64,000 bases of DNA from Acidimicrobiia bacterium (GTDB lineage Bacteria > Actinomycetota > Acidimicrobiia > IMCC26256 > PALSA-610), in contig JBBQTI010000009.1 of NCBI GenBank assembly GCA_038213435.1, positions 15,709-79,708 of the forward strand, given 5' to 3'. The position numbers were made by a program, and so were the translations under genes. This document shows positions 34,225 to 37,997 of this stretch, one piece after another. Within the stretch, counting starts at the first letter, position 1. The number at the start of each line of letters is the position of its first letter. A model generated the notes under the pieces. That model was not told where the DNA came from, searched no databases, and saw only the letters and a program-made list of their open reading frames with translations.

Positions 34225-35604
34225 TCAGCTCTCGGTCGCGATCCAGTAACCGGACCCGTCGGGCCGAGCGGCGACGTCGGTGGCGTCGTCCGCGCCGATT
34301 CGGCTGATCGCACCGCCCATGTAGCGCGCGTCGCCGAAGGCCGAGATCCCGCCGTCGGCGGCCACGAACCAGTAGCCCGCGCCGCTCGGGGTCGCGGCCA
34401 TGCCCACGATCGGCCGGTTGAGCGTGATGTCGACAATGGAGCCCGCGAAACGCGCGTCGCCGAAACAGAACACGCCACCATCCGACGCGACCAACCAATA
34501 CCCGCGGCCCGTGACCGTCGCGGCCATCCCCACGATCGGCCGGTTCAGGCGCTCGCCGCCCATCGAACCGTGGAAACGCGCGTCACCGAAACAGAACACG
34601 CCACCATCCGACTCGACCAACCAATACCCGCGGCCCGTGGCCGTCGCGGCCATCCCCACGATCGGGCGGTTCAGGCGTTCGCCGCCCGTCGAACCCTCGA
34701 ACCGCGCGTCACCGAAACAGAACACGCCACCATCCGACGCGACCAACCAGTAGCCGGCGCCCGTCGCAGTTCGCGCCATGTCGACGATCGGGAGATTCAG
34801 GCGTTGGCCGCCCATCGAGCCGTGGAAGCGCGCGTCACCGAAGCCGAACACACCCCCGTCGGCGGCAACGAGCCAATAGCCGTTCCCGGTGCGCGTGGCC
34901 TCCATACCGACGACGGGACGCTGCAGCGCTCCTTCCGGCTCTCCGTGGTCGGCCGCGGCCCCGAACGCTAGCACCGACGAGCTGAACACGTGAAGGCAAG
35001 GTGCGTCGTGGAGCGCGGTCGCGTTCGCGGTCGCGCTCGTCGTCGTACACGTCTCGTCGAAGTACCACGGCGGGATACAAGAGACGACTCGGCACACGAT
35101 CGGCCCGACACACGCGAGATTCTGACTGCACTGCCCGTATCGGAATTCGTTGCAGCACGTGAACCGTTCGTCGCACGTCCCCGACGCGCAGTGGCAGTTA
35201 CATGTCGCGCAACCCGGAGCGCACGTGCCGCCGGCGTCGCACCCGCACGTGCCGCACGACGCGTTGCAGTCGATGTAGTAGCGCGGACCCGAATTACAGA
35301 ACGACGAGTTGTCTGCCTTCCACCACCCCGCGGGAACGGAGCCGGGTGGGCACGTGTTCTTCCCACCGTTGACCGTGCAGCAGAACGCGGTCCATCCCGA
35401 CGAGCAGGACGCGTCGGGTCCGCACAGTGACGCATACGCGGAACCGGGCCGCAGGAGATACCGCAACGGATTGACCGCCAGCGCGGATCCGAAGACGGCC
35501 GTCCGGACGAGGAAGCTACGGCGTGTGACCCCCCGACCGATGCGCCTCGTCAGACCCGCGAGGGCGCGGTCGCCGAGGCGCCTCCGCGGTTCGGTCATCG
35601 TCAC
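34225..35604 (-). CDS. Tat-exported Cys-rich MADH-light-chain-like (MauA-like) domain fused to 42-aa GYWLVASDGGVF repeats
   Basis: TRRSFL Tat motif; 24 Cys; GGKNTCPPGS..GWW...YYIDC resembles MauA GGSLTNCPPGT...SW...YRDC; GTGA overlap with the upstream gene. Confidence 0.7.
   Translation of the reverse strand: MTMTEPRRRLGDRALAGLTRRIGRGVTRRSFLVRTAVFGSALAVNPLRYLLRPGSAYASLCGPDASCSSGWTAFCCTVNGGKNTCPPGSVPAGWWKADNSSFCNSGPRYYIDCNASCGTCGCDAGGTCAPGCATCNCHCASGTCDERFTCCNEFRYGQCSQNLACVGPIVCRVVSCIPPWYFDETCTTTSATANATALHDAPCLHVFSSSVLAFGAAADHGEPEGALQRPVVGMEATRTGNGYWLVAADGGVFGFGDARFHGSMGGQRLNLPIVDMARTATGAGYWLVASDGGVFCFGDARFEGSTGGERLNRPIVGMAATATGRGYWLVESDGGVFCFGDARFHGSMGGERLNRPIVGMAATVTGRGYWLVASDGGVFCFGDARFAGSIVDITLNRPIVGMAATPSGAGYWFVAADGGISAFGDARYMGGAISRIGADDATDVAARPDGSGYWIATES
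34228..34985 (-). repeat. 126-bp (42-aa) coding repeats: five full copies plus two terminal half-copies
   Basis: GAAACAGAACACGCCACCATCCGA recurs at 34462, 34588 and 34714; peptide unit LNRPIVGMAATxTGxGYWLVASDGGVFCFGDARFxGSxGGxR. Confidence 0.92.
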
Positions 35605-36053
35605 GATTGAACGTCCAAGCCGGCGAGCACCGCGTTGACATCGACGACGATGCGCGGCAGGTACGCGCGACTCCCCGCGACGACGTACAAACAGAACGGC
35701 CGTCCGCCGGCGGTGAAGAAATGTTGGCAGCCGAGCTGGCCGGGCAGCGGTCGCTGCAGGCGCTTGGAGCCGAACATGCCTGCGGTTACCCGCGGCACGC
35801 CCTTCGACGCGAACAACGGCGCGTCGCGCGATTCCGGTCCGTACTCGAACAGCACGACGAACACGTCGGTCGACCGCATTGCCGGCGTCACACCACCACC
35901 GAAGTCGTCGCGCTGTTCCGGCAGGGCGAAGTTCGCGAGGTGCACGACCGCACGGGTTCGCTCCGCCGCGAGGGTCACCCCCCGGCGTTGTATCCGCCCC
36001 TCCCAGCCCGGCGGCACCCCGAGCGCGAGTCCGTGGGCCGCGAGGCGCTTCAT
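35601..36053 (-). CDS. Uncharacterised 150-aa soluble protein in the mau-like operon
   Basis: MKRLAAHGLALGVPPGWEGRI...; overlaps both neighbours by 4 bp. Confidence 0.75.
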   Translation of the reverse strand: MKRLAAHGLALGVPPGWEGRIQRRGVTLAAERTRAVVHLANFALPEQRDDFGGGVTPAMRSTDVFVVLFEYGPESRDAPLFASKGVPRVTAGMFGSKRLQRPLPGQLGCQHFFTAGGRPFCLYVVAGSRAYLPRIVVDVNAVLAGLDVQS

Positions 36054-36727
36054 GTCGCCCTCGCGACCGCGAGCGCGACCATGCCGGCGGCGGCCACGCC
36101 CTGCACGGCAGTCGTCGCACGCGCGACCCGCGGCCGCAACCCCTCGAGGCGGCGCACGAGCCCGCGCAGGGTCGACGGATGGCGCACGCCGGCCGCGGCA
36201 AGGATCGGGAGCGCGCGGGCGAGGCCGAAGATCGCACCGATCAGGGCGCCCGCGATCGCATCTCCCGACAGCAGCGCGCACGCGAACGCGACCCACGTTG
36301 CCGACGCGGACACGATCGTCACGAGCGCGAAGCCGAGCTGCGCGCCGAAGCCCGCGCCGTAGACCCACCCGCGGTACGTGACGAGCCAACTCTCGTCGAC
36401 CTGGCGCCGCGGCCCGGGAACTCGCATCCCGAACGCGCGCGCGTCGAACATGATGCCGGCGATCGCCAGCACCGCGACGACAGCGAGCGCGATGATCGGG
36501 ACCGCGACCGGAGCGCCGACGAACCCGAGGGTGCCGCCGAGGAACGCGCCCGCGACGGTCGAACCGATGATGTAGGCCACGACGGTCACCCAGTAGCGCT
36601 GGCTTCGGGACCGCTCCCCGAGCGGATTGATGCTCGCAAGCATCGATTCTCCTCAGGGCGACCAGGCGCTGCGGGCCGCGGCCAGGGCGGCGAGCAAACA
36701 CCCGACGCCGACGACTGCGCCGTTCAC
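36050..36727 (-). CDS. MauF/CcdA-like membrane protein with an in-frame UGA at 36653-36655 (candidate selenocysteine)
   Basis: GTG at 36727 overlaps the upstream stop; reads MNGAVVGVGCLLAALAAARSAWSP-UGA-GESMLASINPLGE... in frame with the 197-aa ORF containing RQVDESW...GAGFGAQLG (MauF-like). Confidence 0.75.
36611..36644 (-). promoter_or_regulatory. Candidate bacterial SECIS hairpins downstream of the in-frame UGA
   Basis: Two perfect 6-bp stems on the mRNA: GAUGCU-UGCG-AGCAUC (36629-36644) and CCGCUC-GGG-GAGCGG (36611-36625). Confidence 0.5.
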
Positions 36728-37452
36728 GTGCGCGAATCCTCGGCGATCTGCGCGGCCGTGCGGTACAGACTCGGATCTCCCGGCACCACGCCCTGGGCAA
36801 GGAGCTCACGATCGATGCGAACTTCCCGCACATCGCCGCGCGCGTCGTCGACCGCCTGGCGCAGGAGGTTCTTCACCTGATCCCAATTGGCGCCGGTACC
36901 CTCACCGCGAACGCGGCCGTCCTGCCCGTCGACGAGCACGAAGTAAGGCGAGCCCGGTACGCGGTAGTCGGACCAGGCCGCGCTCGACATGACAACCGCG
37001 AGGTCCGGGCGCGCGAGCCTCCGCAGCGCCGAGATGCTCTCCTCGCCACCGTCCTTCGTGACGACGACGAGACGAATGTCCTCGGAGAGATCGAGGCCGC
37101 GCCCATCGGCGAACGCGTCCCAGAAACCCTGACAGGTGAGACAGCCACTCGAGAGGAACGCGAGCAGGGTGCGATGGCGGACTCCGACGACCGACACGTG
37201 CACCGCGTCGTCGCGTAAACCGGCGCCATCGAGATCGGCCGCGGCGGCGAAGGTCGCAGGTCCGGGGGTGCGAAGGTCGACGGGACGCGACCTCGCCGGA
37301 CCCCCAGCCGCGGCCGGGGCATCGGGTTCGAGTCCGGCACCGAGCGCGTGCAGGCGCCGCAGGATCTCGGCATGGCTCCGCAGCAGCCCGGCGACGAGCA
37401 AGGTGAGCAGCACGACGACCACCGTTTCCACGACCAGGATTGCGCTCGTCAT
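36724..37452 (-). CDS. MauD-like membrane-anchored thioredoxin-fold protein
   Basis: N-terminal TM helix ending GLLRSHAEIL; FLSSGCLTC (CxxC); VPGSPYFVLVD cis-Pro loop; ATGA overlap with the mauE-like gene. Confidence 0.85.
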   Translation of the reverse strand: MTSAILVVETVVVVLLTLLVAGLLRSHAEILRRLHALGAGLEPDAPAAAGGPARSRPVDLRTPGPATFAAAADLDGAGLRDDAVHVSVVGVRHRTLLAFLSSGCLTCQGFWDAFADGRGLDLSEDIRLVVVTKDGGEESISALRRLARPDLAVVMSSAAWSDYRVPGSPYFVLVDGQDGRVRGEGTGANWDQVKNLLRQAVDDARGDVREVRIDRELLAQGVVPGDPSLYRTAAQIAEDSRT

Positions 37453-37997
37453 GTCGATGTCGCTCCCTCCTTGGCGGCGGCGAGGTTCGACAGCTCCTCG
37501 AGCGCGAGCACGGCGAGCTTCACGCAACACCCGACGAGCACCACGAATATCGCGCCCTCGAGCCATCGCCCGGCGAGCTGTCCGAAGGGTGGACCACCCG
37601 ACGCCGACGCGATCGCGATGCACACCGCGGCGAGGTCGATCGCGACATGCGTGCGCGTCACGACCGCGTTCGTCGAGCCCAGGCACGCGCACGGTGTCGT
37701 CGGCGCACGGAGAAGCAGCCGGAGCGCGAACGCCGTCAGCACGAGGTAGCAGGCGGCAACCGTGAACACGACGCGACCACCGAGCAATGCTCCCGCGCCA
37801 CCGGTAGCCAGCTCGACGAGACCGAATGCGACGACTCCCGAACGGGGAACCTGTAGTCCCGCGGCGCGTGCGGCGGCCCGTGCGGGCGCGGGATGCAAGA
37901 TCTTGCCGGCGCCCGCGATCGCGAGCAACGCGCACGCGCCCAGAAAGGGCCCGGCCAGAGATCGAGCAACATCCGAACCGAGGATCACGTCCGGCAA
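37449..37997 (-). CDS. MauE/DoxX family redox-associated membrane protein
   Basis: LLAIAGAGK, GLVELATG, PCACLG (MauE CxCxG), about 5 TM helices. The start may be GTG 37988. Confidence 0.85.
   Translation of the reverse strand: MPDVILGSDVARSLAGPFLGACALLAIAGAGKILHPAPARAAARAAGLQVPRSGVVAFGLVELATGGAGALLGGRVVFTVAACYLVLTAFALRLLLRAPTTPCACLGSTNAVVTRTHVAIDLAAVCIAIASASGGPPFGQLAGRWLEGAIFVVLVGCCVKLAVLALEELSNLAAAKEGATST

Follow-up and report, generated by a model that had tools for sequence, protein, structure and literature searches.

A candidate selenoprotein gene with an in-frame TGA beside MauE- and MauD-like genes in Acidimicrobiia

The window, the whole 64,000-nucleotide stretch of Acidimicrobiia DNA that was analysed, carries a series of closely packed genes on its minus strand. 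One of these genes is interrupted by an in-frame TGA. The features of the region, in the direction of transcription, are listed below.

37449 to 37997, minus strand: membrane protein resembling MauE (Pfam PF07291, 31.5 bits, cut-off 27), 182 aa, CxC motif, with an uncertain start codon
36724 to 37452, minus strand: membrane-anchored MauD-like protein of the thioredoxin fold (242 aa, CxxC motif), whose stop codon shares bases with the GTG of the next gene
36050 to 36727, minus strand: candidate selenoprotein coding sequence, GTG start, 225 residues, proposed selenocysteine (Sec) at residue 25, TGA stop at 36052-36050
36653 to 36655, minus strand: in-frame TGA at codon 25, proposed to encode selenocysteine; the homologs carry Cys at this place
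36629 to 36644, minus strand: predicted hairpin 1 (GAUGCU-UGCG-AGCAUC), beginning 8 nt after the TGA; -5.7 kcal/mol alone
36610 to 36626, minus strand: predicted SECIS-like hairpin 2 (CCGCUC-GGG-GAGCGG), with a stem of 6 bp and GGG as its loop, 33 nt from TGA to loop, -8.9 kcal/mol
35601 to 36053, minus strand: 150-aa protein; its start overlaps the candidate's stop (ATGA)
34225 to 35598, minus strand: exported protein bearing a twin-arginine signal, a Cys-rich domain that holds 24 Cys over about 150 residues, and repeats of about 42 aa in tandem

Standard gene calling reports the candidate as 36050-36643 only, an open reading frame of 197 aa. The first-pass annotation had proposed that the apparent gap ahead of this frame is coding. 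Translation bears this out in the window: a GTG at 36727-36725, which shares the bases GTGA with the stop of the upstream thioredoxin-like gene, opens 24 codons (ending in RSAWSP) that lead to the TGA at 36655-36653, then to G-E-S and to the ATG at 36643, in the frame of the 197-aa reading frame. The 24 upstream codons are also conserved among 38 aligned proteins. Overlapping junctions had been described for the whole operon. Overlaps are found between the MauE-like and MauD-like genes (ATGA, 37452-37449), between the MauD-like gene and the candidate, and between the candidate and the 150-aa gene (ATGA, 36053-36050); at the junction to the Cys-rich gene, translation gives an overlap only if the start is a GTG at about 35604.

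The expected truncation by gene callers is widespread. Nearly every homolog in the databases is annotated with the Met behind the TGA as its start. Two protein database searches returned 441 and 673 clusters; of the 120 listed for each search, almost every one has a length of 187-204 aa.

Relatives were compared at codon 25 in two samples. The order sample comprises 201 genomes, 84 of which have a match, 43 of them with a TGA inside it; among the matches without TGA, 27 were fetched and 14 were not. The TGA falls at the exact aligned codon in all 43 TGA-type loci, and the 27 fetched homologs without it have TGC or TGT there, so the UGA occupies the Cys position, as had been claimed from the window alone. 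The phylum sample comprises 301 genomes, 58 with a match and 49 with an in-frame TGA. All 20 loci fetched from it carry TGA at that codon, at identities to the query down to about 28%. In total, 63 loci were checked in which orthologs of other species keep the UGA with both flanks. The recurrence of TGA at this one codon is far above chance. A contig scan found 436 further genome loci that encode the Cys motif WSPCG[EQL]SML; it back-translated Cys as TGY, and could thus find Cys forms only.

Conservation extends to both sides of the codon. In the 38 aligned proteins, W22, S23, P24, U/C25, G26, S28, M29 and L30 are invariant, so that the N-terminal 24 codons are kept together with the motif WSP(U/C)G.SML. 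Loss of these upstream codons among homologs had been named as a possible refutation, and the alignment speaks against it. A start codon lies 18-27 codons upstream of the TGA in every TGA locus. The neighbours of five Cys-form loci were unrelated and uninformative.

The two predicted RNA hairpins after the TGA are likewise conserved. All 43 TGA forms have hairpin 1 in full, compared with none of the 27 Cys forms. Across the family, hairpin 2 has a stem of 6-7 bp and a GGN loop. Among 62 RNAs, 95.1% of cells pair, compared with 86.1 +/- 0.7 in shuffled sequences (0 of 500 shuffles reach 95.1%) and at most 50.4% in slid controls. Seven of the 13 pairs in the two hairpins change on both sides, including six of the seven pairs of hairpin 2; in hairpin 1, pair 28:35 occurs as C-G (49 rows) or as G-C (12 rows). 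The pairs flip in step between distant clades. Within the order, four-fold degenerate sites inside the stems (TCG, CCG, CGG) are invariant, and sites outside the stems vary.

The double changes mostly separate two clades, so few independent events underlie them. Hairpin 1 is invariant within the order, and its bases also encode the conserved residues S-M-L-A-S-I. Taken alone, the 50 nt of the window itself fold in a way that is ordinary for their composition (z -0.84).

A model of the bacterial SECIS element (bSECIS) is given in the legend to Fig. 2 of a 2026 review: a loop of 3-9 nt, a stem of 4-16 bp, a G in the first two loop positions, a spacing of 16-37 nt and an energy of -7.5 kcal/mol or lower. 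Judged by its sequence and predicted fold, hairpin 2 fits this published model; hairpin 1 falls just outside it, with a spacing of 14 nt.

Genomes that carry the TGA form usually carry selA. The gene was found in 41 of 43 TGA carriers and 94 of 158 other genomes in the order sample, and in 44 of 48 carriers and 162 of 252 others in the phylum sample; selA being common in both samples, the excess in carriers is modest, and the genomes, being related, do not count as independent cases. No selA match was found in six of the 91 carriers, three of which are rated 95-98% complete. In all five carriers tested, tRNA-Sec scored above the cut-off.

The gene at 36727-36050 is therefore likely to be a selenoprotein gene, whose UGA at codon 25 would be read as selenocysteine under the control of the two-hairpin element. 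This reading is supported by the Cys homologs, the conserved upstream codons and other flanking sequence, the hairpin specific to TGA forms, and the co-occurrence with selA and tRNA-Sec in relatives. The same observations support the earlier proposal of a 225-aa, Sec-containing membrane redox protein. Three other explanations of the TGA have been considered.

A nonsense mutation (TGC or TGT to TGA), a pseudogene or a sequencing error particular to the source assembly would account for the bare presence of an in-frame stop and for nothing more. That 43 order genomes and all 20 phylum loci checked share this TGA, with protein and RNA conservation around it, refutes this explanation, which retains practically no probability, and disposes of the possibility, raised in the first-pass annotation, that the TGA is unique to one assembly. 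It is also very improbable that the UGA is a true stop everywhere and divides a conserved split gene into a 24-residue helix peptide and a 197-residue protein made by coupled re-initiation. In the window, GAGGAG overlaps the TGA and lies 5 nt before ATG 36643; an ATG, four codons downstream, occurs at the same distance after the TGA in all TGA forms; and gene callers accept it as a start throughout the databases. However, the Cys forms keep this Met just as strictly, which marks it as part of the protein sequence rather than a start that evolved. The purine-rich stretch reads GGNGAR within the order and GGCCTN in a distant clade, so there is no conserved Shine-Dalgarno motif, and the ATG (36643-36641) would be paired inside the 5' arm of hairpin 1. 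A split gene would also have its stop exactly on a Cys codon, with selA present in 85 of 91 TGA carriers. An independent restart, which had been left open at first, is weakened by these observations.

The remaining explanation accepts the selenoprotein family as genuine but holds that the source organism has lost selA, selB and selC. The gene would then be stranded: the UGA would end translation after 24 residues, and at most the 197 residues from ATG 36643 would be made, without the first helix and the redox residue. The source assembly (3.88 Mb, 87 contigs) has an estimated completeness of 95.4%, and selA was not found in it. Nor was selB above its cut-off, the best match being EF-Tu-like, or tRNA-Sec by aragorn; the best match to RF01852 is a tRNA-Ser at 43.1 bits against a cut-off of 47. 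A tblastn search of the assembly with the SelA and SelB open frames of congeners gave only an EF-Tu-like match. In two congeners, selA, selB and tRNA-Sec occupy a single region beside tRNA-Pro(CGG), and the region of more than 50 kb that holds them in one congener has no counterpart in the source assembly. The matching place in the source genome holds a 3' fragment of tRNA-Pro(CGG) and unrelated DNA, a rearranged junction with no clean deletion that is compatible with either loss or an assembly gap. Three genomes of the same genus that lack selA carry the Cys form of the gene. A source genome without Sec machinery had been named beforehand as grounds for refuting the selenocysteine reading, and selA, selB and tRNA-Sec are indeed missing from this assembly; selD (401.7 bits) and a SelW-like gene with a TGA at its CxxU motif are nevertheless present. 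The neighbours of selD are unrelated to selenium. In the source genome, selU was not found, no formate dehydrogenase (FdhA) scored above the cut-off, and no TGA-bearing FdhA match was seen.

A stranded gene is unlikely on several counts. The gene shows no decay: its 24 codons, TGA and both hairpins are intact and near-identical to those of selA-bearing congeners. The assembly is also smaller, at 3.88 Mb, than those of two selA-bearing congeners (about 4.6 Mb). In the probable source sequencing run, contigs cover a congener's selA-selB at 82-88% identity, the same range that separates the source genome from that congener (82.5-87.2%). These contigs are all under 1.2 kb, below the shortest contig of the source assembly. 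Together, selD, the second gene with a TGA at a Sec position and the selA-selB contigs of the probable source sample argue for an incomplete assembly.

Under the selenoprotein reading, the single gene on the minus strand would encode a 225-residue polytopic membrane protein. Its UGA would be decoded as selenocysteine at the direction of the two-hairpin element that begins 8 nt past it. The Sec or Cys of WSP-U-G-x-S-M-L, at the end of the first predicted membrane helix, would be its sole conserved redox residue.

The relation of this protein to known families appears to be remote. The window's read-through protein has no Pfam or NCBIfam match at E <= 0.1. Its predicted structure (pLDDT 93, pTM 0.89) finds CcdA (5vkv) at rank 4 in a Foldseek search of the PDB (E 0.36, TM 0.34); the best VIA-align Z, 6.3, is to unrelated transporters, and a profile search of solved structures gave a chance-level match only. 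Other members of the family are more informative. PF13386 (DsbD_2) is matched by 8 of 38 members at E <= 1, the best at E 6.4e-8, and reaches 23.0 bits against a cut-off of 24.9 in a scan of distant members. One distant member matches PF02683 (DsbD_TM) over nearly its whole length (E 8.1e-5, 22.5 bits against a cut-off of 27.1), and two match the DsbD model NF001419 weakly. These matches suggest that the candidate family is a distant member of the DsbD/CcdA superfamily.

In CcdA and DsbD, each half of the protein contributes one conserved redox cysteine, and electron conduits of this type carry a redox PC motif related to WSPCG. The candidate resembles them in being a small polytopic membrane protein of similar length, with thioredoxin-fold partners encoded alongside and a redox residue that comes directly behind a proline where the first membrane helix ends. 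It differs in that this residue would be selenocysteine and that residue 25 is the only invariant Cys/Sec in the 38 proteins; the equivalent position in the second half reads GFGxQLG in the candidate family.

According to the first-pass annotation, MauF proteins also carry a WSPCG motif, and mau clusters are arranged mauF, mauE, mauD, mauA. By gene context the candidate can be likened to MauF: it is a membrane protein whose gene accompanies those of MauE- and MauD-like proteins, close to the gene of a Cys-rich twin-arginine exported protein. However, the Cys-rich neighbour has no match to the methylamine dehydrogenase light-chain family in Pfam.

The genes around the candidate are themselves conserved. 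The MauD-like gene adjoins the TGA gene in 43 of 43 order loci and 18 of 20 phylum loci, and its CxxC is kept in every match that spans the motif; its product matches the MauD model TIGR02661 at E 1.1e-4, far below the model cut-off. The CxC of the MauE-like protein is kept in 31 of 31 matches, and K32, E62, C103, C105 and G107 are invariant in 15 sequences. Following the TGA gene, the 150-aa gene, whose product has no Pfam or NCBIfam match, comes next in 43 of 43 order loci, all of which share the order MauD-like gene, TGA gene, 150-aa gene; it was found in 8 of 20 phylum loci. The Cys-rich gene is kept downstream in most TGA loci whose fetched flank extends that far. The twin-arginine signal of its product is recognised by TIGR01409 at 16.8 bits (cut-off 16.7), and Pfam gives a weak RCC1_2 match.

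A family member is fused to a MauE domain (PF07291, E 1.1e-21) in L200, the single long form that was scanned. Three others (L202-L204) share its length of about 400 aa, a likeness of length alone, and further MauE-bearing long forms occur among the database homologs.

A recent preprint (10.64898/2026.03.05.709764) describes MauE as a DsbB-like disulfide-forming enzyme, a substitute for DsbB, with a CXC active site. In the portions of that preprint available, the CXC, the glycine after it and a conserved Lys and Glu are features of MauE that also appear in the MauE-like neighbour; the CxxC of the MauD-like neighbour likewise fits the MauE-MauD pathway. The same portions describe neither a DsbD-like partner nor a selenoprotein, with 0 occurrences of "MauF" or "Actino" and one of "DsbD". 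By comparison, the present cluster always has a third, putatively Sec-bearing membrane component, and in some cases this component and MauE form one fused protein.

The arrangement of the genes and the occurrence of MauE fusions suggest that the candidate may bind MauE. The candidate may be co-transcribed with the MauE-like (CxC) and MauD-like thioredoxin (CxxC) genes, and its selenol would take part with their products in a thiol/selenol-disulfide relay in the membrane. Such a relay could form or correct the numerous disulfide bonds of the exported Cys-rich protein, whose gene is the second one downstream and which is the likely substrate of these redox genes.

Several membrane selenoproteins appear in Table 1 of the 2026 review: TsoB (a rhodanese/DsbD fusion-like protein, NF045694), YeeE/YedE, a MerT-like transporter and SaoP. 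Like the candidate, these are computationally predicted membrane proteins with Sec in place of Cys. TsoB, as described in the review's table, differs in having a UxxxxU motif with two Sec and a rhodanese domain; the candidate family has a single proposed Sec in WSPUG and another gene neighbourhood. The family is absent from a 2026 list of 119 prokaryotic selenoprotein families, and no selenoprotein model of NCBIfam release 20.0, the library of the review's NF accessions, matches it. Literature searches, within the accessible text of the sources, returned no selenoprotein of DsbD, CcdA or MauE type. The family is thus probably uncatalogued.

There is an even chance that the gene is a first sighting of a phylum-wide, uncatalogued family in Acidimicrobiia and other Actinomycetota: single-Sec, DsbD/CcdA-like proteins of "MauF type" that would be the third, selenium-dependent component of a MauE-MauD disulfide-forming machinery. 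If so, extracytoplasmic oxidative folding in these abundant soil and sediment bacteria would depend on selenium, and Sec would be in use across many uncultivated lineages of Actinomycetota.

Mis-annotation is routine for selenoprotein genes. If this reading holds, some thousand database entries with lengths of about 190-200 aa would be truncated selenoproteins; almost all public calls lack the first membrane helix and the proposed catalytic residue, and could be put right once the family is recognised. The bacterial selenoproteome would also gain a membrane protein of thiol-redox type, selenium use would become connected to the MauE/MauD pathway of disulfide bond formation that has recently been proposed, and the role of MauF-type proteins, long unknown, would become open to experiment.

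Translation of the window confirms the minus-strand layout that the first-pass annotation had proposed: a gene that begins with GTG at 36727 and runs through an in-frame TGA into a 197-aa open reading frame (ORF). It belongs to the following cluster.

Genes of the cluster, in window coordinates
37997-37449, minus: MauE-like protein (PF07291, 31.5 bits)
37452-36724, minus: MauD-like thioredoxin-fold protein (TIGR02661, E 1.1e-4, far below its cut-off)
36727-36050, minus: candidate selenoprotein gene (GTG start, in-frame TGA 36655-36653)
36053-35601, minus: 150-aa protein of no family (no Pfam or NCBIfam match)
35598-34225, minus: twin-arginine-signal protein with a Cys-rich first domain (24 Cys) and tandem repeats (translation and profile scans)

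The GTG (36727-36725) shares bases with the TGA stop of the upstream MauD-like gene, as GTGA. Twenty-four codons (..AARSAWSP) precede the in-frame TGA, and Gly-Glu-Ser separates it from the ATG at 36643, where the 197-aa ORF starts; this ORF ends at 36050.

The read-through protein was searched in six frames against 201 genomes from its order, and relatives were also examined in a sample of 301 genomes across Actinomycetota. In the order, 84 genomes match, 43 of them (own genome included) across one TGA. Tabulating TGA against TGC/TGT, as the first-pass annotation had suggested, places TGA in the pattern ..RS[STAM]WSP-TGA-GESML[AST]SI.P[LF][GV]ER at all 43 TGA-type loci, and TGC or TGT in ..WSP-C-G[QL]SML.. 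at all 27 loci fetched from the 41 stop-free matches. In the phylum, 58 of 301 genomes match, 49 with an in-frame TGA, which stands at the aligned codon in each of the 20 TGA-bearing loci fetched. Among these 20 is a distant clade (..STLF[SG]P-TGA-GLSM[VA]ETI..) with only about 28-36% identity to the query. The tallies rest partly on genomes flagged as unpublished (G093 among the 43 order genomes, and 8 of 48 other phylum carriers). Since the TGA is kept across both samples, it cannot stem from a local mutation or a sequencing error.

Further in-frame stops, or stops other than TGA, occur in four phylum genomes, G217 (one TAG), G359 (one TGA and one TAA), G252 and G201 (two TGA each), and in order genome G090 (locus L048), which has two in-frame TGA, one confirmed at the Cys codon. 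Decay of the gene copy, frame errors or a second recoding site may account for them.

An independent restart at ATG 36643 could draw on GAGGAG, which lies 5 nt upstream of it and overlaps the TGA. The Met used as start by gene callers is invariant in Cys forms also, and is thus a residue of the protein rather than an evolved restart. No Shine-Dalgarno motif after the TGA is conserved across the order and the distant clade; the purine-rich stretch is GGNGAR within the order, whereas the distant clade has GGCCTN. In an alignment of 20 TGA and 18 Cys forms, W22, S23, P24, U/C25, G26, S28, M29, L30, P35 and E38 are invariant, as are 13 positions later in the protein, and at every locus a start codon lies 18-27 codons ahead of the TGA. 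The 24 upstream codons, which the first-pass annotation expected homologs to conserve, carry a start and end in an invariant WSP. Because database homologs of the read-through protein are nearly all 193-200 aa among the matches listed, they are called from the same Met; this fits either the absence of an N-terminal extension or a conserved stop, and the six-frame search decided for the stop. The shortened public gene calls are named "hypothetical protein" or "sulfite exporter TauE/SafE family protein". One homolog, P0067 (290 aa), starts at the Met after the TGA and has an internal duplication of about 95 residues that looks like an assembly artefact, or is possibly a real tandem duplication.

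The nucleotides right after the TGA are constrained far beyond the need of the protein. Four-fold degenerate sites in TCG, CCG and CGG show no variation within the order; those just upstream (TCN, CCN) and in loops vary freely. RNAalifold predicts two hairpins here.

Hairpins after the TGA, in window coordinates
36644-36629, minus: hairpin 1, GAUGCU-NGCG-AGCAUC, with the ATG inside
36626-36610, minus: hairpin 2, CCGCUC-GGN-GAGCGG

Across 62 RNAs from both samples, pairing holds in 95.1% of cells against 86.1 +/- 0.7 in shuffles, none of 500 reaching the observed value, and it falls to 35-50% when partners are slid by 1-3 columns. Both-sided changes occur in 7 of 13 pairs, mostly separating two clades and so reflecting few independent events. 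Pair 28:35 is C-G in 49 rows and G-C in 12; pair 45:55, G-C in 45 and C-G in 12; pair 46:54, C-G in 45, G-C in 12 and U-A in one. Hairpin 1 is invariant within the order, and the stems double as codons for conserved residues. Complete hairpin 1 is found in all 43 TGA forms, as opposed to none of the 27 Cys forms. In the window, hairpin 2 has a 6-bp stem, a GGG loop, a UGA-to-loop distance of 33 nt and -8.9 kcal/mol, values within the bacterial SECIS model in the Fig. 2 legend of review PMC13188914. For its composition, the 50-nt fold of the window sequence is unremarkable (z -0.84).

Carriers of the TGA form usually have selA (TIGR00474): 41 of 43 against 94 of 158 other genomes in the order, and 44 of 48 against 162 of 252 in the phylum. 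Related genomes are not independent in these counts, and the enrichment is modest because selA is common in both samples. Six carriers across the two samples gave no selA match. A tRNA-Sec was found in all five carriers tested (67-72 bits, cut-off 47). The retained TGA, the Cys homologs, the hairpins of the TGA forms and selA/tRNA-Sec in carriers together support the first-pass proposal that the codon is read as Sec, and this is very probably a true selenoprotein family. Replacement of Cys by Sec in thiol-redox proteins is well established.

The main weak point is the own assembly (87 contigs, 3.88 Mb, estimated 95.4% complete). The search of the source genome for Sec machinery, also suggested in the first-pass annotation, succeeded for selD (401.7 bits) and failed for the rest: a profile search of the assembly found no selA, selB gave EF-Tu-like matches only, and aragorn found no tRNA-Sec, the best RF01852 match being a tRNA-Ser(GCT). 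The solitary selD (C2:55592-56524, locus L100) is flanked by genes for an NlpC/P60 protein, a hydrolase-thioredoxin fusion, a GH15 glycosidase and a metallo-beta-lactamase-fold protein, with no other selenium-related gene among these neighbours; selU was not found in the genome.

Loss of the machinery would fit the comparison with two congeners. In both, selA, selB and tRNA-Sec share a contig, and an intact tRNA-Pro(CGG) (L093:2327-2402 and L094:17229-17304) lies within a few kb of selA and selB. Over 50 kb of this region has no orthologs in the own genome, tblastn of the assembly with open frames from the congeners' sel regions found none, and the rearranged syntenic junction (C42:3022-3058) retains only a 36-nt 3' fragment of the tRNA-Pro(CGG). 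Three observations point instead to an incomplete assembly. The candidate gene is intact, as are its hairpins. Outside the window, the genome holds a probable second selenoprotein gene, a SelW-like Rdx gene (PF10262, 52.4 bits; C5:78871-79089, L105:1501-1719) whose CxxU motif contains an in-frame TGA (..YCVP-TGA-DYS..). The selA-selB of one congener is covered piecewise (550-1091 nt per piece, 82-88% identity) by contigs of the assembly's probable source run; the genome-wide identity to that congener is 82.5-87.2%. These contigs are shorter than the assembly's smallest, and could belong to another organism in the sample. The organism probably decodes its own copy as Sec.

The AlphaFold model of the candidate is all-helical and of high confidence (pLDDT 93, pTM 0.89), its first helix of 20 residues ending at WSP-U-G; structure-fold searches with it gave no clear match. 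Judged by profile matches, the family would lie on the margin of the DsbD/CcdA superfamily. PF13386 matches 8 of 38 members at E <= 1 (best 6.4e-8) and PF02683 one, a distant member matches PF02683 below cut-off (residues 9-193, E 8.1e-5), and DsbD model NF001419 matches two distant members weakly. The window's own read-through protein has no Pfam or NCBIfam match at E <= 0.1. CcdA and DsbD have two conserved cysteines, whereas this family has only one conserved Cys/Sec and is therefore not a canonical member.

Some TGA forms of the distant clade (L200, L202, L203 and L204, 400-404 aa) are about twice as long. In L200, the sole form of about 400 aa scanned, a C-terminal MauE domain (PF07291, E 1.1e-21) makes up the additional half, and further long forms with a MauE domain occur among the database matches listed. 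Another locus, L196 (515 aa), is extended by a domain of about 290 aa without a Pfam match.

The order of MauD-like thioredoxin, TGA gene and 150-aa gene holds at all 43 order TGA loci, usually with MauE and a Cys-rich exported protein nearby. The same arrangement occurs in 8 of 20 phylum loci, most of the remainder having the MauD-like gene, and these neighbours are missing at 25 of the 27 Cys-form loci. The 150-aa protein directly follows the TGA gene in 43/43 order loci, and its C121 is kept in 37 of 44 matches. The exported protein at 34225-35598 (minus) has a TAT signal, 24 Cys in residues 59-201 and five or more tandem repeats, each about 42 aa long; its RCC1_2 match is weak, and homologs occupy the same position in most TGA loci.

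The MauE-like CxC is kept in 31 of 31 matches, an alignment of 15 sequences shows no variation at K32, E62 or G107, and the MauD-like CxxC is kept in every match spanning the motif. Preprint 10.64898/2026.03.05.709764 describes MauE as a quinone-linked enzyme that forms disulfides in the manner of DsbB, and MauD as the DsbA-like protein that partners it; the CxC, Lys, Glu and Gly features assigned there to MauE recur in the neighbouring MauE-like proteins. The chance that the candidate acts in this MauE/MauD pathway is about even. The Sec residue would then be a step in a membrane thiol/selenol-disulfide relay that also involves MauD and MauE and acts on the numerous disulfides of the Cys-rich exported protein. 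It could either supply MauE, which has a single CXC, with a second redox site, or serve as a reducing (isomerising) arm as DsbD does.

Among the 119 prokaryotic selenoprotein families or subfamilies in Table 1 of review PMC13188914 (May 2026), no CcdA/DsbD_2/MauF-type protein with a WSPUG motif appears; the nearest entry there, TsoB, differs in being rhodanese/DsbD fusion-like with two Sec residues. The selenoprotein models of NCBIfam release 20.0, the library of the review's NF accessions, match none of eight family members. Searches of literature listings found no such selenoprotein; the deep-Sep and groundwater-MAG candidate lists, from studies cited in the review, may include the family. 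The candidate is most likely a selenoprotein gene that standard gene calling conceals, from a widespread and apparently uncatalogued family.
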